A program made the position numbers and the translations under genes. The notes under the pieces were generated by a model. The model did no database searches. It had not been told where the DNA came from and saw nothing but the letters and a program-made list of their open reading frames with translations. Shown here in pieces: positions 1-47,795 of a DNA stretch of 64,000 bases. The stretch's first letter is position 1; each line of letters opens with the position of its first letter. This DNA comes from Escherichia coli (GTDB taxonomy: Bacteria > Pseudomonadota > Gammaproteobacteria > Enterobacterales > Enterobacteriaceae): the NCBI RefSeq assembly GCF_044324875.1, contig NZ_CP172185.1; one strand, 5' to 3'.

Positions 1-1523
<1,523 letters not shown>

Positions 1524-1786
1524 GAAGGTGAATAAGTGATAGCCCAATCGCCTTTCTGCATTTCATTCACAAAGCGCCAAACCTGAGAAGCACCAGAGCG
1601 AACTGTGCCTGGCTTAGTCTGTGGCTCAAGCTCCTGATACCGGATAAACAACTGCTCTCTTGAGCATCCAGGTTTCACATAGGGAGCGAGCTGCGACCAA
1701 CCAATTGCAACAACCTGTTTGTCTCTGAAGTCGTCGTACAATTTTCCGCCATCACCGCGGATCATCCACATCTTAGTCGCCACAAT
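1524..1786 (-). pseudogene. 5' portion of the IS-interrupted ORF (N-terminus (V/M)ATKMWMIRGDGGKLYDDFRDKQVVAIGW..)
   Basis: Reverse-strand ORF with AGGA about 6 nt upstream of a GTG/ATG start near 1771-1786; protein-like sequence through about codon 85, after which the frame runs into IS-derived sequence. Confidence 0.4.
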
Positions 1787-1893
1787 AATTCCTTCTGAAA
1801 ATACTTCATCGTTATACCGGGACGTGATCATTCCATTCAGCCACCTTATCCAGGGGAAAAACACCGATAAGATGGCTAATCAAAATGTCTGTT

Positions 1894-4800
1894 CTAAACC
1901 TGACGCCTATCAAGACTATTATAAATAGCCTCAATCTCACCTTTCAGGTTATCACCAGAGTAAACCATCGATGTATCGTATCGTTCATATCGCGCTTCCC
2001 GTGTCGCACTAAACCAGTTGAACGATCCCACGCATAGCAAACCATCATCACCAATAACAATTTTGCTATGAACACGGTTTACCAGCTTTGTAGCAATACC
2101 CAGCGCATTCAGTTTCTCCAGCGCCGCTTTAAGGTTCTGCTGCTTCTCTTTTCGCTTCTCAAAATCTTTATGTTCAGTGTTATAGCTTCTGTCAGTGACT
2201 ATCGTGACGTTAATTCCACGTGAACACGCCGCAATCATGGAATCAAGAAAACCCGTTTGCTCCAGCTTTTGCCAGGTCAGCCATGGAGAAACTATCGTGA
2301 TGTGTTTATCGGTATTTTCAAACGTCTGATTCAGGAAATTATCATGCTGCTCCACACCATGGAGTGTGTAGATTTTGGTCTCGGAAGTTTTTAAATCCTT
2401 ACGCTCTTTATAATCAAAAGAGAGCGCATTCTTCTCGGACTCAAAGAGATATTTTGCCAGTAATCCCCGCGGAGATGAGGCTGGCTGGATCTCAAACAGG
2501 TCCATATCGCCGAAGACCAGGAAACTGTCCTTCGCACGGGAGACAGCAACGTTCAGCATGCTGTTATCGCTATCAATAAACCCGCCATCCTCATGCTTTG
2601 AATAGACTGGCGAGAATATAACAATCGCTCTTTCCGCCCCCTGAAGAGAATGCACGGTGCCCACGGTGAGCGACGTTTCATTCGCGCCTGTACTGATGCC
2701 TTGTTTACCCAGCGCCTGTTTGATAGTCGATACCTGCGCGCTAAAAGGCGTCACGATACCGACAACTTCATGAAGCGATTTGCCGTAATGCGCTTCAATA
2801 TCTTGCTGGTTATCTGTCAGCCAGGCAGCTATCGTTTCAGCCTCAAGCAAATTATATCGACTTCCGCTACTTGCCAGCGCTCCTTTACCATCAATATGGA
2901 GATAACCCATTGCGGGCATTAAATTGCTCTCTTCACGCCCTCTTTTAGGCAACAACTTACCGTGATAGCAGAGCGTATTACAGTATCCAATAATATTATC
3001 GAAGCACCGGCGGTGTTCATATAGGTACATACCACGAGCCAGTTCGGGATCATATTGATAGCGCGAAGCAAACTGAGCTATTTTCATAACGCTGCCAGAT
3101 GCGGCACTTTTACCAAGGTCTGCGATTGCCGTATATTTCTCGGTAATCTCTTCTTGCGTACTGCCAGACAGAATTTTTTCCGCCAGCATGTTACCGATAT
3201 CAATCGCAGGAGCAATACTCCATATTGGCGGGATCTGCTCCGTATCGCCAATCACTAATGCCTTCTTAGCTAATGCAAACGAGGCAGCAGCCACTTCAGG
3301 AAGCACCTGTCCGGCTTCATCGACAATGAGTAAATCGGCAAAATCATACAAATAACTTTTCTCGAATTTACGTTGTCCTTTGTGCTCACTTATCTGCATA
3401 TTGCCGGGCAGCATATAGCATGTCATCACCACACATGGAATGAGTTTCATTCGACGTTGCCAACGGGCAGTTACTCCTTTAGCGCCTTTTTTCTTCTTCT
3501 CTTCCTGCAGATCATCAATTCTGGCCATATCCATCAGCCAACGACCTTCCCAGTAGTGAGTCGTCAGTAAAAATGCAGGGAAGCGAATCTGCGTATCAGC
3601 CAGTTCATCGGCCTGTGAGAAGCTCAGTTCCTCGTCGCCCTCATACCCTAAATCAAGTGTCAGCCTCTGCCACTCCTGAACCGCCTGCTGTTCTTTAAGA
3701 ACGATTTCATGGGCGGAGTCAATCTGCTTCCGGTATGTTGTTTGCTCGCGTTCAGCGGAATTGAGCAGCCCATCAATATTACGTTCGATAGTTTCAGGAT
3801 CAGACCACTGATTTCCTGCAATCAGCGCGCCTAATTTATCTTCGAGAAACAGCTGTATTTGGTACTGTCGCTTATTGCGAACCGCCGGGAGCCAGGAAAA
3901 TAATGAATAGATCAGTGATTCACCGGCGCGATATTTTTTCCATTCCGTTTTAGCACTCTTCAGTAGAGTAACTTTTTGTTCTTGCCCGGAGAGTAATTTA
4001 TTTAAATTATCGAGATATTGCTCAATGTTATCAGCAATAAGCTCACGCGCCGCCCGAACCTGGCTTAACGTTTGCCATGTTGCGTTCAGTCTTATCAGTT
4101 GCTCGGATTTTGCTGCCAACTGACCATGCAGGAGTTCAATGACCTTTTCAGGGGATGAACACTCTTTTTCAGGAAAGGCTGCCTTAGCCTTCTCCAGATA
4201 AAACAGCAGTGCATCCTCTACATACTCTTTTGACTCAACCTGGTTGAAGAAATCTTCAGTTTGATATTTTTTGGCGGCCTCAGCTTTACGAGTGCTTGAG
4301 GGAAAATAAGCGCCGAAGCTTTTCAGCTCTGGCAACCATCGTCCGGCCATCGCACCGGTGCCCTGGGAAAAATCTTTCCCGAACGCCTCGATAATGTTCG
4401 TGACAGCCTGGTTATTCGTTGAGGTCGCGATAATGACCGGAGGCTCAGATTTTTCGAGAGCCGCTCGGGCCCACTGCGTGGCGATGATAGAAAGCACCAG
4501 CGTGGTTTTTCCGGTTCCCGGAGGGCCATTAACAGCAAGGATATCGCCATGTCTGGCATCCAGAAAATGGCTTAAGGCATCGCGCTGAGCCTTTGCCAGC
4601 GGAAACTTATCTCCGGAGTGTCCAAGCCTGTCGCTGAATTTTGCTCCTGGGGCCAGCAAAGACTCTGCAGCATGAACCTCTCGCGAGGCGAAGCGATTGA
4701 AGAGTGGCACATCCTTCTTGCAAACAAGCAGGTGATCATAAAGCGAAAGGATATGGAAACTGGCACCGCCAGATTGCGCCGTTTTAACAATATAACCGTG

Positions 4801-5409
4801 CTCAGCGAGTTCATATTGCTCAGGATTTTTAATCCAGTCGCCGGCAACGTTCTTCAGCAGCCTCTCTGAATCATCCAGATATTGACGCCAATCCTGCTGC
4901 AAGGCTGCATATCGTGCTTCCCGTTCTTCATCCGTTTCGGCAGTGTTATCAACGCTGTCATCAAACTTGATAGAGAATGACGTATGTGTCGTTTTATATT
5001 TGTCATACTGCTCAATCTCACCAATCGAAAATGCCCCTTTTGGCAAAGGTTCAAGCAGGTCTCTGGGAATGGAGGTCGCTGGCGTCGGGTATAAAAAACC
5101 CTCACGGCTTAGCAAGGCTGGCGTCACTAGCGGGGTAACAATATCAGGCACGCCTGCGGAACGGTCCTTACCATGCTGCAGTAACCGAAAATAAACTTTT
5201 GGGCGCAAGACGACATCGACCGTTTCGACATCGTCTTTTTCTCCCTCAAAAAATTTACTGACAATCGCTTCGTCAAGACGTCCCGCCGCTATCCCATGCC
5301 AGTGAGTGAAATTTTGGGCGTCTTTCCGTTCAAAGCTGCCCTTTCCTGACTCAGCATCCGCAAGCGAGTTGCGCCAGTATGAGGCAAACCCTAAAGCATT
5401 TTCATCCAT
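1894..5409 (-). CDS. Superfamily-1 (Upf1/DNA2-like, COG1112-type) helicase fused to a C-terminal phospholipase-D (HKD) family nuclease domain; candidate defense protein (Mokosh type II-like architecture)
   Basis: 1171-aa ORF. Walker [13 protein letters not shown]; motif [10 protein letters not shown]; motif [14 protein letters not shown]; motif [20 protein letters not shown]-terminal HKD motif [25 protein letters not shown] about 8 nt upstream of ATG. Confidence 0.85.
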
Positions 5410-5734
5410 TACCAGTCCTATGACTCAATGAAATCCATTGATTTATCGAATATAAAATCACCGTATGGATAACTATTGTCCACGTTGAAAGGCTGGCTGC
5501 AATGTTTTGTTCACGCTTCGATACAAATACTCAGGTTATACGGAGTTCAGAAAACGACCATATCATGCTGCATGGCACATAAAAGCTTTATAACCGAAGC
5601 AGCAAAGGATTACCGGCTGCGCAGCACGCCACGAAAGCCCGTGAGCTCTACTGGACAGCGTTCAGTGCAATATTGGAGTCTGTAAGTCCAGAAAATATCA
5701 CTGTCGAAGATGGTTCTGTATGTAGGTGCGCCAG

Positions 5735-6112
5735 CTATTGTTTTGTCCGATGCTTGCGAATAAAAGCATTCAAAATGTCGCCTTCACCATGCATGACAGA
5801 AAAAGAATATTCACATTCTTTCTTTATCAAGATTCCACATAATTCCTTGTGCAAATCTACATTAACTCCCTTTCCTTTCTGTGCTTTCTTCACACCGAGC
5901 TCACATGAACTGATTAATTCAACGTTACAGGGTTTCTTCAAATAATTCACACCATCAATTAAGCCCTGGAGAATGCATCTATTTGCGGTCGTATTACTGT
6001 AGGAGAAGGTCAGATATTTTATTTTCCCTTCACATTCCAGCACAACTTCCGCCGAACCTTCACGTGTTGCAGCATCACAACTTCCTGTTGAATATATTTT
6101 CACCATCTTCAT
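5735..6112 (-). CDS. Small RNase HI-like fold protein with substituted catalytic residues (predicted inactive pseudo-RNase H)
   Basis: 125-aa ORF; by-eye alignment to E. coli RNase HI: VKIYSTGSCD vs VEIFTDGSCL, NTTANRCILQG vs RTTNNRMELMA, VELISSCELG vs VILSTDSQYV, VNVDLHKEL..HGEGD vs KNVDLWQRL..HAGHPENERCD, with the DEDD positions replaced. Strong SD (GGGGAAAGG) upstream. Confidence 0.55.
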   Translation of the reverse strand: MKMVKIYSTGSCDAATREGSAEVVLECEGKIKYLTFSYSNTTANRCILQGLIDGVNYLKKPCNVELISSCELGVKKAQKGKGVNVDLHKELCGILIKKECEYSFSVMHGEGDILNAFIRKHRTKQ

Positions 6113-6180
6113 TTTGTACCTTTCCCCTTACCAAACGAATCATGACATCCTATATCAAAGGCATTCTCGTCAAAACTTTA

Positions 6181-6960
6181 CTATCTCAGTAAATTCTCCC
6201 GATGCCACTCCAGATAACAATACGATTCAACAGAAAACGCCTTTATTTTCTCCGGCAACAAACATTGCTCTTTAACGCTAATATCCAGCTCCTTACTAAT
6301 TAATAAATGCCCATCGTTCTCAAACGAAATCCATCCCTGATCGAATAGAATATCAATATGCGCAGCCAATATAATTCCATTAAAAGGATCAAGACGTTCA
6401 TTTCCATTCTCGCAGGCAGCCCACGGCTTTATATGGCTGGCACGCAGTAAAGGTGCAAAAGTCGTTCCCGTAACAGGGCATGCCGGATACAACATGAGAC
6501 AATTTTTCCGAAAGGTACCTTGCCCCAGCCGTGCCGCAATCAGCTGCTCGCGTACGGTATCTTCAATACTTTTATCCTGCTGAATAGCAAGACAGTCACG
6601 TTGTGCCTGTTCATCTCTATCAGTCGATATTAACGAAAGAACGCGCTGCTCAATTGCACTATCAGAAAGCACACTCAATCGCTGATGAACACGCTGCGCT
6701 GAATGAGAAAGCGCAGCAGGAGCACCCTGCTCGTCACGCCAACCGACACGCACATCACTAAGCCAGGAATCAAAACGGTCACGACTATTTTTCAGACTAT
6801 TGTGAAACTCGCTGGCAGTTTTGCCCGCTCCAAATCGAGGATAAAACAAGGCAAAAGCCTCTTTCCATTTCTGAACACCCAGTCCTGCGGGTGGTTGAGA
6901 GTTACCATACTTCGACAAATACCACGCCACTTCAAGCAAATCGTCTTCAGAGCTATTCAA
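6181..6960 (-). CDS. HNH-family endonuclease (259 aa); apparent TTG start
   Basis: C-terminal HNH motif ..LRASHIKPWAACENGNERLDPFNGIILAAHIDILFDQGW..; frame is open only back to a TAA at 6988-6990 and the first plausible start is TTG at 6958-6960 with AGGA 7 nt upstream; no in-frame ATG near the N-terminus. Confidence 0.7.
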   Translation of the reverse strand: MNSSEDDLLEVAWYLSKYGNSQPPAGLGVQKWKEAFALFYPRFGAGKTASEFHNSLKNSRDRFDSWLSDVRVGWRDEQGAPAALSHSAQRVHQRLSVLSDSAIEQRVLSLISTDRDEQAQRDCLAIQQDKSIEDTVREQLIAARLGQGTFRKNCLMLYPACPVTGTTFAPLLRASHIKPWAACENGNERLDPFNGIILAAHIDILFDQGWISFENDGHLLISKELDISVKEQCLLPEKIKAFSVESYCYLEWHRENLLR

Positions 6961-7030
6961 TATTACGTCCTGTTTTTGCAGAGTAAATTATCACCAGATT
7001 ATATCTGAAAAAATCATTTACTAAACTGAT

Positions 7031-7174
7031 CTGCTTACCTGCAAAACGGTACTGCAAACGCTAATACTCAGAACCATTAAAAGGAACAAGCAGGTGCATA
7101 CCGCTGCCATCGGTCAGTTTGTACTGCTTATCCGTTGGCCTGGCTGTTCTGACCTTGATATCTGTTAACGCCAT
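7031..7174 (-). pseudogene. intB: 5' remnant of a P4-type tyrosine integrase (intB-like) adjacent to leuX; in-frame amber then loss of homology
   Basis: Reverse-strand ATG at 7174 with strong SD (GGGAGGGG) encodes MALTDIKVRTARPTDKQYKLTDGSGMHLLVPFNGSEY-stop-RLQYRFAGKQ, matching the conserved N-terminus of P4-family integrases; TAG at 7061-7063 sits where a conserved Trp is expected; no integrase-like sequence below about 7030. Confidence 0.75.
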
Positions 7175-7324
7175 GCTTATCCCCTCCCTGTTGGTACAAG
7201 CATTATCGAACCGGAAATACCATCATCTGTACCAACATGTGTTGGTAGATGTACGTTGATATCGGTTGACCTTGAGAGAGTTAATATAGCGAAAAAGGTA
7301 GGTAACTGCTGGATTTCAGGCATA

Positions 7325-7350
7325 AAAAAAGACCTCAGTTGAGGTCTATT
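7325..7350 (-). terminator. Rho-independent terminator downstream of leuX
   Basis: Hairpin GACCTCAGTTGAGGTC followed by a T-run on the minus strand immediately 3' of the tRNA. Confidence 0.7.
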
Positions 7351-7360
7351 TACATACTTT

Positions 7361-7445
7361 TGGTGCCGAAGGCCGGACTCGAACCGGCACGTATTTCTAC
7401 GGTTGATTTTGAATCAACTGCGTCTACCGATTTCGCCACTTCGGC
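7361..7445 (-). tRNA. leuX: tRNA-Leu (anticodon CAA)
   Basis: Reverse complement reads GCCGAAGTGGCGAAATCGGTAGACGCAGTTGATTCAAAATCAACCGTAGAAATACGTGCCGGTTCGAGTCCGGCCTTCGGCACCA: cloverleaf with CAA anticodon loop, long variable arm, encoded CCA. Confidence 0.92.
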
Positions 7446-7640
7446 ACTGAAGAGGTATGCGGAAAACGTTGTGGATTATACCTGTCGCACGCCACCATGC
7501 AAGCGCCAGCTTGCTCGCACCTCGCTAAGTGCTGAAATTTTCAGCATTGCATACAGCGATGTGTAACCTTTGTCACACTCCAGGCACCCCGCCCTGCCAT
7601 GCTCTACACTTCCCAGACAACACCAGAGAAGGACTAAAAA

Positions 7641-8660
7641 ATGTCGATGATAAAAAGCTATGCCGCAAAAGAAGCGGGCGGCGAACTGGAACTTTATGAG
7701 TACGATCCCGGTGAATTGAAGCCACAAGATGTTGAAGTGCAGGTGGATTACTGCGGGATCTGCCATTCCGATCTGTCGATGATCGACAACGAATGGGGAT
7801 TTTCACAATATCCGCTGGTTGCCGGGCATGAGGTGATTGGGCGCGTGGTGGCGCTCGGGAGCGCCGCGCAGGATAAAGGTTTGCAGGTCGGTCAGCGTGT
7901 CGGGATTGGCTGGACGGCACGCAGCTGCGGGCATTGCGATGCCTGTATTAGCGGTAATCAGATCAACTGCGAGCAAGGTGCGGTGCCAACAATTATGAAT
8001 CGCGGCGGTTTTGCCGAGAAGTTGCGTGCGGACTGGCAATGGGTGATTCCGCTGCCAGAAAATATTGATATCGAGTCTGCCGGGCCGCTGTTGTGCGGCG
8101 GTATCACGGTCTTTAAACCACTGTTGATGCACCATATCACTGCCACCAGCCGCGTTGGGGTAATTGGTATTGGCGGGCTGGGGCATATCGCTATAAAACT
8201 TCTGCACGCAATGGGATGCGAGGTGACAGCCTTTAGTTCGAATCCGGCGAAAGAGCAGGAAGTGCTGGCGATGGGTGCCGATAAAGTGGTGAATAGCCGC
8301 GATCCGCAGGCACTGAGTGCCCTGGCAGGGCAGTTCGATCTCATTATCAACACCGTCAACGTCAGCCTCGACTGGCAGCCTTATTTTGAGGCGCTGACGT
8401 ATGGCGGTAATTTCCACACCGTCGGTGCGGTTCTCACGCCGCTGTCTGTTCCGGCCTTTACGTTAATTGCGGGCGATCGCAGTGTCTCAGGTTCGGCAAC
8501 CGGTACGCCTTATGAGCTGCGTAAGCTGATGCGCTTTGCCGCCCGCAGCAAGGTTGCGCCGACTACCGAACTGTTCCCGATGTCGAAAATTAACGACGCT
8601 ATCCAGCATGTACGCGATGGTAAAGCGCGCTACCGCGTGGTTCTGAAAGCCGACTTCTGA
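7641..8660 (+). CDS. ahr: NADPH-dependent aldehyde reductase (zinc-type alcohol dehydrogenase)
   Basis: 339-aa ORF; Zn-ADH motifs ([26 protein letters not shown]); matches E. coli Ahr/YjgB by recall. Confidence 0.9.
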
Positions 8661-8789
8661 TCCCTTTGCCGGGTGCCTGTCGCCCGGCGTTTAAATCTCT
8701 TTGGAAGGCGTCTCGCAATCTGCTGAATTTAGCGGTGAAGAGTGCGCAGCCGTTGCCTATACTCCAGGCAGGAAACTGGAGGATATCTC

Positions 8790-10292
8790 ATGAGCGAACC
8801 CCTGTTAATTGCCCGCACGTCGGACACAGAACTGTTTTTATTGCCGGGAATGGCGAATCGTCACGGGCTGATTACTGGCGCAACGGGGACGGGTAAAACC
8901 GTTACGCTGCAAAAGCTGGCGGAGTCATTGTCGGAAATCGGTGTTCCGGTGTTTATGGCTGATGTGAAAGGTGATTTAACGGGAGTTGCGGAGGAAGGTA
9001 CATCTTCGGAAAAACTGCTCGCAAGGCTTAAAAATATCGGCGTAAATGACTGGCAACCTCATGCTAATCCGGTGGTGGTGTGGGATATCTTTGGCGAGAA
9101 AGGCCACCCAGTGCGGGCGACGGTTTCGGATTTGGGGCCTCTGTTGCTGGCGCGACTGTTGAATCTCAACGATGTGCAATCTGGCGTGCTGAATATTATC
9201 TTCCGCATTGCGGACGATCAGGGATTGTTGCTGCTCGACTTTAAAGATTTGCGGGCGATTACCCAGTACATCGGCGATAACGCCAAATCCTTCCAGAATC
9301 AGTACGGTAATATCAGTAGCGCATCGGTTGGTGCCATCCAGCGCGGGCTGTTATCGCTGGAACAGCAAGGCGCAGCACACTTCTTTGGTGAGCCGATGCT
9401 GGATATCAAAGACTGGATGCGTACCGATACCAACGGTAAAGGCGTTATCAATATCCTCAGCGCCGAGAAGCTTTATCAGATGCCGAAACTGTACGCCGCC
9501 AGCCTGCTGTGGATGCTTTCAGAATTGTATGAACAATTGCCTGAAGCGGGCGATCTGGAGAAACCTAAACTGGTGTTTTTCTTCGACGAAGCACATCTGC
9601 TGTTTAACGATGCGCCACAGGTACTACTGGATAAGATTGAGCAGGTGATAAGGCTTATTCGCTCAAAAGGCGTGGGCGTCTGGTTCGTTTCGCAAAACCC
9701 GTCAGATATTCCGGATAATGTGCTCGGGCAGCTAGGTAATCGCGTTCAACACGCTTTACGGGCTTTTACGCCCAAAGATCAGAAAGCAGTAAAAGCTGCG
9801 GCGCAAACCATGCGGGCCAATCCGGCGTTTGATACCGAAAAGGCAATCCAGGAACTGGGGACCGGCGAGGCGTTAATCTCGTTTCTCGATGCGAAAGGAA
9901 GCCCTTCAGTGGTGGAACGGGCGATGGTGATTGCCCCCTGTTCACGAATGGGGCCGGTGACGGAAGATGAGCGTAATGGCTTGATTAATCACTCTCCAGT
10001 GTATGGTAAGTACGAGGATGACGTGGACCGGGAATCCGCCTATGAGATGTTGCAAAAAGGCTTTCAGGCCAGTACCGAGCAGCAAAATAATCCTCCCGCG
10101 AAAGGGAAAGAGGTGGCGGTGGATGACGGTATTCTCGGTGGATTGAAGGATATTTTGTTTGGCACTACCGGACCACGCGGCGGGAAGAAAGATGGTGTGG
10201 TGCAAACAATGGCGAAAAGCGCCGCCCGCCAGGTGACGAATCAGATTGTGCGTGGGATGTTGGGGAGTTTGCTGGGGGGGAGAAAAAGGTAA
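8790..10292 (+). CDS. yjgR: DUF853-family P-loop NTPase YjgR
   Basis: Start [12 protein letters not shown]..; Walker A GATGTGKT; 500 aa, as in K-12 YjgR. Confidence 0.85.
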
Positions 10293-10452
10293 GTCAGGTG
10301 CGATTTGTCTTTGCCTGATGCGACGCTGGCGCGCTTTATCATGCCTACACTACTGCAATATATTGAATTTTCATGATTTTTCAGGCATGAACGAAGCACA
10401 CTTTGCTAACAATAATAAAGGGAGCTTTCGCTCCCTTTATTCGTTCATCAGG

Positions 10453-11535
10453 TTACGATTTTCTCATTAACAGCCACAGGCTGATTAAGAAGAAGCTGGC
10501 GCTTGGCAGCAACGCGCCGATAATCGGCGGGATGCCGTAAACCAACGTCAGCGGGCCGAAGATCTGGTCCAGTACGTAGAAGACAAAACCGAAGCTGATA
10601 CCGGTGACCACACGCACGCCCATCGGTACGCTACGCAGTGGGCCAAAGATAAACGACAGCGCCATCAGCATCATCACCGCCACGGATAGCGGCTGGAAGA
10701 TTTTGCTCCACATGTTGAGCTGATAACGTCCGGCATCCTGACCGCTCGACTTCAGATACTTCACATAGTTGTGCAAACCACTGATGGAGAGTGCATCCGG
10801 GTCCAGCGCCACCACGCCCAGTTTGTCTGGCGTGAGGTTGGTTTTCCAGGTGCCGCTCACCGTCTGCGAACCGGTGATCTGTTTCGGATTGGTCAGATCA
10901 GATTCATCAACCTGCGACAGACGCCAGACTTTATGTTCCGGGTCAAACTTCGCGGTAGCGGCATAGCGTACGGATTGCAGACGACGATTCTCGTTAAAGG
11001 CATAGATACTGATGCCACCTAACTCTTCGTCACCTTTAACCCGCTCAATGTAGACAAAGTTGTTGCCATCTTTCGCCCATAAGCCTTGCTGGGTAGAGAG
11101 CAACGAGCCGCCGTACATCGCCTGCGCACGGTAGTTACGCGCCATCTGCTCGCCCTGCGGCGCGACCCATTCGCCAATCGCCATCGTCAGCAAGACCAGC
11201 GGAATGGCGGTTTTCATCACCGACAGCGCTACCTGCATACGGGTAAAACCAGAAGCCTGCATCACCACCAGTTCGCTGCGCTGCGCCAGCATCCCAAGAC
11301 CAAGCAACGCCCCAAGCAGAGCCGCCATCGGGAAGAAGATTTGCACATCTTTCGGCACGCTCAGCAAGGTATACATTCCTGCGCCTAACGCGTCGTAACT
11401 CCCCTGCCCGGCTTTTTTCAGCTGATCGACAAACTTGATAATGCCCGACAGCGACACCAGCATGAACAGCGTCATCATGATGGTGGTAAAAATAGTTTTA
11501 CCGATATAGCGGTCAAGTACGCCAAAAGGTTGCAT
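10453..11535 (-). CDS. lptG: LPS export ABC transporter permease LptG
   Basis: 360-aa polytopic membrane protein beginning MQPFGVLDRYIGKTIF; directly downstream of and 1-nt overlapping lptF. Confidence 0.9.
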   Translation of the reverse strand: MQPFGVLDRYIGKTIFTTIMMTLFMLVSLSGIIKFVDQLKKAGQGSYDALGAGMYTLLSVPKDVQIFFPMAALLGALLGLGMLAQRSELVVMQASGFTRMQVALSVMKTAIPLVLLTMAIGEWVAPQGEQMARNYRAQAMYGGSLLSTQQGLWAKDGNNFVYIERVKGDEELGGISIYAFNENRRLQSVRYAATAKFDPEHKVWRLSQVDESDLTNPKQITGSQTVSGTWKTNLTPDKLGVVALDPDALSISGLHNYVKYLKSSGQDAGRYQLNMWSKIFQPLSVAVMMLMALSFIFGPLRSVPMGVRVVTGISFGFVFYVLDQIFGPLTLVYGIPPIIGALLPSASFFLISLWLLMRKS

Positions 11536-31081: not shown

Positions 31082-31350
31082 AAGGAGTCCCTCCGCACTG
31101 TCTGAAACAGTACAGAAATGTCTTCAGGCGTGGCGAAGCCTTACCTGAAGGTAATAAAGCTGAGCAGGGACGTTAAAACGTCACGGCCTTACGCATCCGG
31201 TAACGCCGTGAAAAGACGGGCTTACCGGAAAAGTTTTAATCTCCGTCGAGGGAGAGGCGTGGGATCAGGTTCCATATAACCTCCGGTAAGTGAAAAAAGC
31301 GCCGCAAATAATAAGGAGAATCCAATAATATTCGTAGCATCTATGGCGAT
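31082..31350 (-). promoter_or_regulatory. mgtA 5' leader (Mg2+/proline-responsive) including the mgtL leader ORF
   Basis: Long untranslated leader upstream of mgtA containing a 17-codon proline-rich ORF; known regulatory architecture in enterobacteria. Confidence 0.6.
31222..31275 (-). CDS. mgtL: mgtA leader peptide
   Basis: 17-codon [20 protein letters not shown] within the leader. Confidence 0.7.
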
Positions 31351-31459: not shown

Positions 31460-32407
31460 ATGCAAAATCGGCTGACCATCAAAGACATCGCGCGCTTAAG
31501 CGGCGTGGGGAAATCTACGGTTTCCCGGGTGCTGAATAACGAAAGCGGCGTGAGCCAGCGCACGCGCGAGCGTGTTGAAGCAGTGATGAATCAGCATGGA
31601 TTTTCCCCTTCCCGCTCTGCGCGCGCTATGCGTGGGCAAAGCGATAAAGTGGTCGCCATCATTGTTACCCGTCTGGATTCGTTGTCAGAAAATCTCGCCG
31701 TTCAAACCATGCTGCCAGCGTTCTATGAACAAGGTTACGATCCAATCATGATGGAAAGTCAGTTTTCCCCGCAATTAGTTGCCGAACATTTGGGGGTGCT
31801 GAAACGGCGTAATATCGACGGCGTAGTGCTGTTCGGTTTTACCGGCATAACAGAAGAAATGTTAGCCCACTGGCAGTCATCGCTGGTTCTGCTGGCGCGT
31901 GACGCAAAAGGCTTTGCTTCGGTCTGTTATGACGACGAAGGGGCAATCAAGATCCTGATGCAACGGCTGTATGACCAGGGACATCGTAATATCAGTTATC
32001 TCGGCGTGCCGCACAGTGACGTGACGACCGGTAAGCGACGTCACGAAGCCTACCTGGCGTTCTGCAAAGCGCATAAACTGCATCCCGTTGCCGCCCTGCC
32101 AGGCCTTGCTATGAAGCAAGGCTATGAGAACGTAGCAAAAGTGATTACGCCTGAAACTACCGCCTTACTGTGCGCAACCGACACGCTGGCACTTGGTGCA
32201 AGTAAATACCTGCAAGAGCAACGCATCGACACCTTGCAACTGGCGAGCGTCGGTAATACACCGTTAATGAAATTCCTCCATCCGGAGATCGTCACCGTAG
32301 ATCCCGGTTACGCCGAAGCTGGACGCCAGGCGGCCTGCCAGTTGATCGCGCAGGTAACCGGGCGCAGCGAACCGCAACAAATCATCATCCCCGCCACCCT
32401 GTCCTGA
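31460..32407 (+). CDS. treR: Trehalose operon repressor (LacI family)
   Basis: 315-aa ORF MQNRLTIKDIARLSGVGKSTVSRVLN (LacI HTH). Confidence 0.93.
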   Translation: MQNRLTIKDIARLSGVGKSTVSRVLNNESGVSQRTRERVEAVMNQHGFSPSRSARAMRGQSDKVVAIIVTRLDSLSENLAVQTMLPAFYEQGYDPIMMESQFSPQLVAEHLGVLKRRNIDGVVLFGFTGITEEMLAHWQSSLVLLARDAKGFASVCYDDEGAIKILMQRLYDQGHRNISYLGVPHSDVTTGKRRHEAYLAFCKAHKLHPVAALPGLAMKQGYENVAKVITPETTALLCATDTLALGASKYLQEQRIDTLQLASVGNTPLMKFLHPEIVTVDPGYAEAGRQAACQLIAQVTGRSEPQQIIIPATLS

Positions 32408-41444: not shown

Positions 41445-41560
41445 TGCCGGATACGGTGCACCTGTAGGCCTGATAAGACGCATCAAGCGTCGCATCAGGC
41501 ACTATGCTCAAATGCCGGATGCGGCGTAAACGCCTTATCCGGCATACACACATGCAAGGC
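41445..41560. repeat. REP elements between yjgA and mpl
   Basis: GTAGGCCTGATAAGACGCATCAAGCGTCGCATCAGGC and GCCGGATGCGGCGTAAACGCCTTATCCGGC units. Confidence 0.88.
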
Positions 41561-47699: not shown

Positions 47700-47795
47700 A
47701 GGCATGATAAGACGCGGTAAGCGTCGCATCAGGCTTCAGTGCACCATCGCCGGATGCGGCGCGAGCGCCTTATCCGGCCTACGAATCGGCATCAG
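47700..47795. repeat. REP elements between ytfR and ytfQ
   Basis: GGCATGATAAGACGCGGTAAGCGTCGCATCAGGC and GCCGGATGCGGCGCGAGCGCCTTATCCGGCCTAC units. Confidence 0.88.

Follow-up and report, generated by a model that had tools for sequence, protein, structure and literature searches.

The idnK-idnDOTR genes of Escherichia coli K-12 constitute the GntII system, by which L-idonate and 5-ketogluconate are taken up and catabolised. In this pathway L-idonate is converted to 5-ketogluconate, then to gluconate and finally to 6-phosphogluconate, and the genes encode a gluconokinase (idnK), L-idonate 5-dehydrogenase (idnD), 5-ketogluconate reductase (idnO), a transporter (idnT) and a LacI-type regulator (idnR). 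The K-12 GntII/idn locus and its part in L-idonate catabolism were reportedly described by Bausch et al. in 1998. In the stretch of E. coli DNA analysed here (64 kb, further referred to as the window) ahr and yjgR, the two genes that enclose the idn genes in K-12, are direct neighbors. What does this short junction represent: a scar left by deletion of the idn genes, a site from which they were moved elsewhere, an assembly error, or an alternative state of the locus with a history of its own?

The ahr-yjgR junction in the window and in K-12

Both genes are located on the plus strand and the spacer between them, counted from the ahr stop codon (8658-8660), measures 129 bp (8661-8789), which is what the initial annotation had estimated (only about 130 bp). 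The Ahr product is a zinc-type alcohol dehydrogenase with ADH_N and ADH_zinc_N domains (Pfam), while YjgR is a HerA_C/DUF853 protein (Pfam HerA_C, E = 1.5e-253). Compared with MG1655, ahr is 95.6% identical at the nucleotide and 99.1% at the amino-acid level, and yjgR 94.3% and 98.8%, respectively. The RefSeq annotation of M7424, which is 99.6% identical to the window over 5.3 kb, gives identical gene limits, and the spacing of ~130 bp is found in M7424, O157 and 2c3. No ORF with any family match is present in the 129-bp slot. The leuX gene is intact and lies 196 bp upstream of ahr, 1.2 kb from the slot, across ahr. The coordinates of these and other features are collected in Table 1.

Table 1. 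Features of the ahr-yjgR junction and of other parts of the window
Feature	Position	Strand	Basis or remark
326-aa ORF	340-1320	-	2c3 position annotated as IS110-like IS621 family transposase
1,171-aa superfamily-1 helicase-like AAA_11/AAA_12 protein with C-terminal PLD nuclease domain	1894-5409	-	leuX island
RNase H-family protein	5735-6112	-	leuX island
HNH endonuclease	6181-6960	-	leuX island
leuX, tRNA-Leu(CAA)	7361..7445	-	ARAGORN; Rfam tRNA; equal placement relative to ahr in MG1655; marker of the adjoining hotspot of integration and recombination
ahr (yjgB), NADPH-dependent aldehyde reductase	7641..8660	+	ORF; left flank of the slot
90-bp segment specific to the idn-less allele	8661..8750	+	MG1655 has the 5,087-bp idn cassette instead
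Intrinsic-terminator-like hairpin after ahr, GCCGGGUGC/GCGCCCGGC-type stem, then U-rich tail	8667..8704	+	pattern scan
Conserved 34-nt block, CTCGCAATCTGCTGAATTTAGCGGTGAAGAGTGC	8712..8745	+	only in idn-less junctions; non-coding
yjgR-proximal leader, present in both alleles	8751..8789	+	TATACT -10-like hexamer, CUCCAG/CUGGAG hairpin, GGAGGA ribosome-binding site
yjgR (DUF853, HerA-like C-terminal P-loop protein)	8790..10292	+	ORF, ATG at 8790; right flank of the slot
naRNA4 (REP-type), three copies	14490-14565, 41467-41544, 47701-47779		Rfam gathering threshold
Other Rfam matches	13460-13654, 31175-31290, 57391-57448, 62020-62142		gathering threshold

The window is oriented as the reverse complement of the MG1655 region, where the gene order is valS-holC-pepA-lptF-lptG-yjgR-idnR-idnT-idnO-idnD-idnK-ahr-leuX; the K-12 map therefore does place idnK-idnDOTR between ahr and yjgR, as the initial annotation had stated. 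The window is collinear with MG1655 4,434,708-4,496,817, from ahr onward over 55 kb, with the exception of the idn genes, an island beyond leuX (window 1-7031), small repetitive-element differences and a strongly diverged argI-yjgL segment. Alignment by blastn gave homology blocks at 7032-8660 and 8751-14522. The homology reaches precisely to the end of the ahr stop codon on one side (window 8660 = MG1655 4,495,190), and on the yjgR side it restarts at window 8751 (= MG1655 4,490,102), leaving 5,087 bp in K-12 versus 90 bp (8661-8750) in the window.

When the five MG1655 Idn proteins were searched against the whole 64-kb window (tblastn), no idn gene was found at the junction or elsewhere. The matches obtained were remote paralogues only, of 21-27% identity, i.e., a short-chain dehydrogenase at 24659-25351 (bdcA, 27%) and a LacI-family repressor at 31463-32356 (treR, 21%), and a nucleotide search of the window gave no idn match either. 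Re-examination of the junction thus uncovered none of idnK, idnD, idnO, idnT and idnR between ahr and yjgR, and the earlier claim that the accessory content differs here from K-12 holds for all five genes.

The 90-bp segment has no similarity anywhere in the 20-kb MG1655 locus (blastn). A search for idn remnants in the spacer, performed with word size 7 against the same locus, matched only the shared 40 bp of the yjgR leader. Homologues of the segment occur in E. albertii and in E. coli O157, 2c3 and M7424, and C. werkmanii has part of it. The hairpin in its ahr-proximal part (folding energy of the RNA -17.2 kcal/mol; z = -2.8 relative to shuffled sequences) is a putative ahr terminator. The 34-nt block that comes after it has 0-1 mismatches in other E. 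coli and E. albertii and 3 in C. werkmanii (31/34 kept), while the flanking genes of Escherichia and C. werkmanii are only ~82-83% identical. A pattern search did not find the block in MG1655, clone D i2 or Citrobacter FP75, nor in the Enterobacter/Leclercia loci. It is missing from K-12 because it is confined to idn-less genomes, and has therefore never been studied in K-12. The block matches no consensus promoter, and Rfam at E <= 1 over 8400-9000 revealed no RNA family; that it regulates yjgR would be a guess.

The yjgR leader of the window recurs without a single change in MG1655, clone D i2, O157 and E. albertii, and its core GGTTGCCTATACTCCA is also found in Enterobacter and Leclercia. 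It may serve as a promoter, judging from its motifs; a sigma-70 promoter for yjgR on the plus strand was sought by consensus scan and none was found. By alignments and pattern search, then, the window carries the spacing of ~130 bp and the 90-bp segment with hairpin and 34-nt block that mark the idn-less allele.

Several observations concern other differences between the window and its relatives. Positions 1-7031 form a leuX-associated island without an intact integrase; in 2c3, a syntenic relative, only an integrase fragment (DUF4102) is found beside leuX. The content of this island (Table 1) looks like that of a defence island; in 2c3 a PLD-like 'anti-phage protein' comes after the leuX island, and an IS621 family transposase interrupts a restriction endonuclease gene. 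K-12 carries PR-Y/intB/IS2 content at the leuX site, entirely unlike the window island. Since the nearest junction-identical genomes, GN06156 and KK05-19, do not have the IS621 copy at window 340-1320, their coverage is only 89% (first 12 kb, 99.6% identity). The segment 19958-22714 (rraB/argI/yjgL 5' part) is 90.5% identical to MG1655 and its surroundings 97.6-97.8%, which points to a divergent imported allele of argI-yjgL; the M7424 orthologue of argI is named argF in RefSeq. The pepA-holC interval differs in length from that of MG1655 by ~100 bp, possibly owing to the naRNA4 copy located there, and the remaining Rfam matches are Ysr276 antisense in pepA, an Mg riboswitch upstream of mgtA, STnc450 and ES239. 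On a 120-kb plasmid of E. coli strain 35 (NZ_CP172870.1, H30) a 'zinc-binding dehydrogenase' is 92% identical to ~400 bp of ahr and may be a mobilised chromosomal ahr copy.

Two states of one slot among E. coli genomes

In the 5,426 complete E. coli genomes available in RefSeq, a collection with heavy sampling bias, a contiguous ahr-yjgR junction is found in 3,212 (59%), and idnD-idnO in 2,054 (38%), always on the chromosome and never on a plasmid. The K-12-type idnK-ahr junction is present in 2,051 genomes and the K-12-type idnR-yjgR junction in 2,052, so that relocated idn clusters are practically non-existent among the 2,054 carriers. Any ahr was detected in 5,266 genomes, which equals the sum of 3,212 and 2,054 and therefore fits mutually exclusive states; the other ~3% have lost ahr or are rearranged in some other way. 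Apart from these, E. coli falls into two clear groups, with the slot empty in one and occupied in the other, and the idn-less arrangement is the majority state, K-12 being the strain with extra content. Partial idn remnants occur in a few E. coli, e.g., H100 retains only 94 bp of idnD. The 3.1-kb junction haplotype of the window is shared at 100% identity with ~30 complete genomes, including RM14516, GN06156, KK05-19 and M7424.

Variable idn content in E. coli is already established. ST131 H30 and H22 do not have idnK and SE15 does (PMC5369007); the five idn genes were found in 83% of pks-positive versus 31% of pks-negative genomes (PMC8545132); and HUS-associated non-O157 STEC are enriched in L-idonate degradation genes (PMC4216125). 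The absence of idn in the window is ordinary strain-to-strain variation of this known kind. As the empty state is commoner, K-12 is a poor reference for this slot, and in view of the reported correlation with pks-positive ExPEC and HUS-associated STEC, idn content can be taken as a minor lineage marker. For annotators it means that the strain has no subsidiary GntII route. Judging from gene content, the strain is probably unable to grow on L-idonate or 5-ketogluconate via GntII, and its use of gluconate via GntI, whose genes gntT/U/K lie outside the window, is expected to be intact.

The occupied allele has its own peculiarities. The G+C content of the cassette is 47.3% versus 53.8-55.6% for ahr, yjgR, lptFG and pepA. 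Low cassette diversity was measured in detail on one genome pair, MG1655 from phylogroup A and clone D i2 from B2. All five idn genes show 99.0-99.9% identity between the two, compared with 95.2% for ahr and 94.1% for yjgR, and the first mismatches appear within 100-200 bp of the cassette edges. Among the 2,054 idnDO copies, 2,001 are at least 99% identical to K-12. The MG1655 cassette contains five metabolic or regulatory genes only, without an integrase or transposase, and no terminal repeats were found at its edges (positions 8104 and 13190 of the 20-kb locus). The nearest repeat pair (D6, 19 nt, 84% identity) lying 70-85 bp outside the cassette edges was dismissed as chance-like. The marks of a classical genomic island or mobile element (integrase/transposase, direct repeats, insertion in a tRNA gene) are thus missing from the idn cassette, and those of a recombining horizontally acquired cassette (deviant base composition, cassette less diverged than flanks) are present. 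Within E. coli the cassette has the appearance of a recently spread insert.

The flanks are peculiar as well. In E. coli ahr and yjgR are unusually polymorphic, with 5-6% nucleotide divergence between phylogroups at ~99% protein identity, which is about half the E. coli-to-E. albertii distance, and lptFG, 1 kb beyond, are 98-99% identical. This polymorphism fits the published leuX recombination hotspot, the leuX-fimH region being one of two main recombination hotspots of E. coli (PMC2621348; PMC5635113). Moreover, one leuX-island type adjoins both idn states (H31-36 versus H37-39 and H57-60). The uniform cassette, its diverged flanks, the lack of integrase and repeats and the leuX island found with both states fit exchange by homologous recombination via the flanks, and idn looks like an old cassette that would be exchanged in this way near the leuX hotspot. 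The near-uniform cassette between flanks diverged by 5-6% illustrates how this hotspot shuffles accessory genes. This contrast, together with the conserved 34-nt block missing from K-12, is what makes the locus mildly interesting.

Origin of the idn-less allele

Species other than E. coli were sampled with YjgR as bait; the matches listed were mostly Betaproteobacteria and included eight enterobacterial loci, without Salmonella and E. fergusonii. In Citrobacter sp. FP75 the order ahr-idnK-idnD-idnO-idnT-idnR-yjgR and the breakpoints are as in K-12, and its nucleotide identity to K-12 is 78-83% for the idn genes and 82-85% for the flanks. Since the FP75 idn genes are about as diverged as their flanks, the occupied state must also be old. 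The 90-bp segment is absent from the K-12 locus and has homologues in E. albertii and C. werkmanii, which excludes deletion of the K-12 cassette as the source of the spacer; the strain therefore carries, to all appearances, an old alternative allele.

We consider it highly probable that the window represents the empty allele of a two-state ahr-yjgR slot, that this allele is old rather than a private deletion, and that the cassette is a recombining insert. The empty allele would be the one in which ahr and yjgR are joined by the 129-bp spacer with its terminator-like hairpin and 34-nt block, and in the other allele, that of K-12 and ~38% of E. coli, the 5.1-kb idnK and idnDOTR cassette would take the place of the first 90 bp of this spacer. 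The strain would have either inherited the old allele or regained it via homologous recombination with another idn-less E. coli. The cassette would be the inserted state, passing between lineages by homologous recombination via the conserved flanks beside the leuX hotspot. The direction of the event, insertion versus loss, cannot be proved, as both alleles are present in Escherichia and Citrobacter.

How do other explanations compare? If idn were ancestral to E. coli and simply deleted in this lineage, the junction would be a deletion scar; the Citrobacter idn genes, which are found at the same slot with flank-like divergence and so indicate an old occupied state, speak for such a history, as do the partial remnants in a few E. 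coli (94 bp of idnD in H100). However, joining of existing flanks creates no conserved sequence, and the 90 bp absent from the idn-carrying allele are common to E. albertii and C. werkmanii, with 31/34 positions of the 34-nt block kept in the latter; the G+C content of the cassette, 7-8 points under that of the flanks, argues against a simple deletion too, which makes it quite improbable. Relocation of idn to another chromosomal site or a plasmid could be proposed because the window is only 64 kb of the genome. Yet this is hardly credible in the face of 2,051 idnK-ahr and 2,052 idnR-yjgR junctions among 2,054 idnDO genomes, no plasmid copies, and an ahr total (5,266) that corresponds to mutually exclusive states. 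As 2,051-2,052 of the 2,054 carriers use this slot, a contiguous junction means almost certainly no idn anywhere in the genome, and on these population statistics the source strain is almost certainly idn-free genome-wide. An artefact of assembly or collapse is practically out of the question as the cause of the short junction, given that 3.1 kb across it are 100% identical in ~30 independent complete genomes and the arrangement recurs in 3,212.

A different matter is what keeps both alleles in existence. Instead of neutral gain and loss, the slot could be a long-lived balanced presence/absence polymorphism that crosses species boundaries. Both alleles occur with the same breakpoints in Escherichia and Citrobacter, their frequencies in E. 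coli are intermediate (59% and 38%), the flanks show unusually high synonymous divergence, and published surveys link idn to the pks island and to HUS-associated STEC lineages (PMC8545132; PMC4216125). The frequencies, however, come from a collection with heavy sampling bias, the leuX hotspot already explains high flank diversity, and the recent coalescence of the E. coli cassette (at least 99% identity) is a misfit with an old balanced allele, so balancing selection appears rather unlikely. The fuller scenario, in which selection would keep a trans-species two-allele slot at intermediate frequency, crossovers at the edges would spread the cassette and the 34-nt block would be a regulatory element of yjgR, is somewhat more doubtful still. 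The old empty allele beside a recombining cassette remains the preferred reading of the locus.

The slot compared with known systems

One may also suspect that the window comes from a divergent Escherichia species, because its junction shows no more than 93-94% identity to most E. coli. This possibility was rejected: the identity of the window to E. albertii is 89%, whereas to E. coli it reaches 96-98% outside ahr and yjgR, and at the junction ~30 E. coli genomes match it at 100%.

Comparison of the slot with its counterparts reveals different degrees of similarity. In Enterobacter cloacae, Enterobacter sp. Ag1 and Leclercia, unlike in the window, ahr and yjgR are ~1.8-1.9 kb apart. The E. cloacae slot contains cargo of a third type, a Dak1/Dak2 dihydroxyacetone kinase of 548 aa (7217-8863 of locus L006); it was identified in this species only, and the Ag1 (L007) and Leclercia (L008) loci are known by gap size. 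The K-12 GntII/idn locus shares with the window the neighborhood and the order of ahr, leuX, yjgR, lptGF and pepA and differs in the five idn genes, which the window does not have (90 bp versus 5,087 bp).

The idn-less loci are much closer. In C. werkmanii and E. albertii ahr and yjgR are adjacent as in the window, 129-137 bp apart, and their spacers likewise contain the yjgR leader, the 34-nt block and a hairpin next to ahr. The C. werkmanii hairpin is of other sequence at the equal position and the spacer is a few bases longer, whereas E. albertii has the whole spacer in common with the window. Other idn-less E. coli (O157:H7 FRIK944, M7424, RM14516, and ST131 according to PMC5369007) have an identical junction architecture, and the commonest idn-less E. 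coli haplotypes differ from the window in that their flanking genes are 5-6% diverged from it, almost all of the changes being synonymous.
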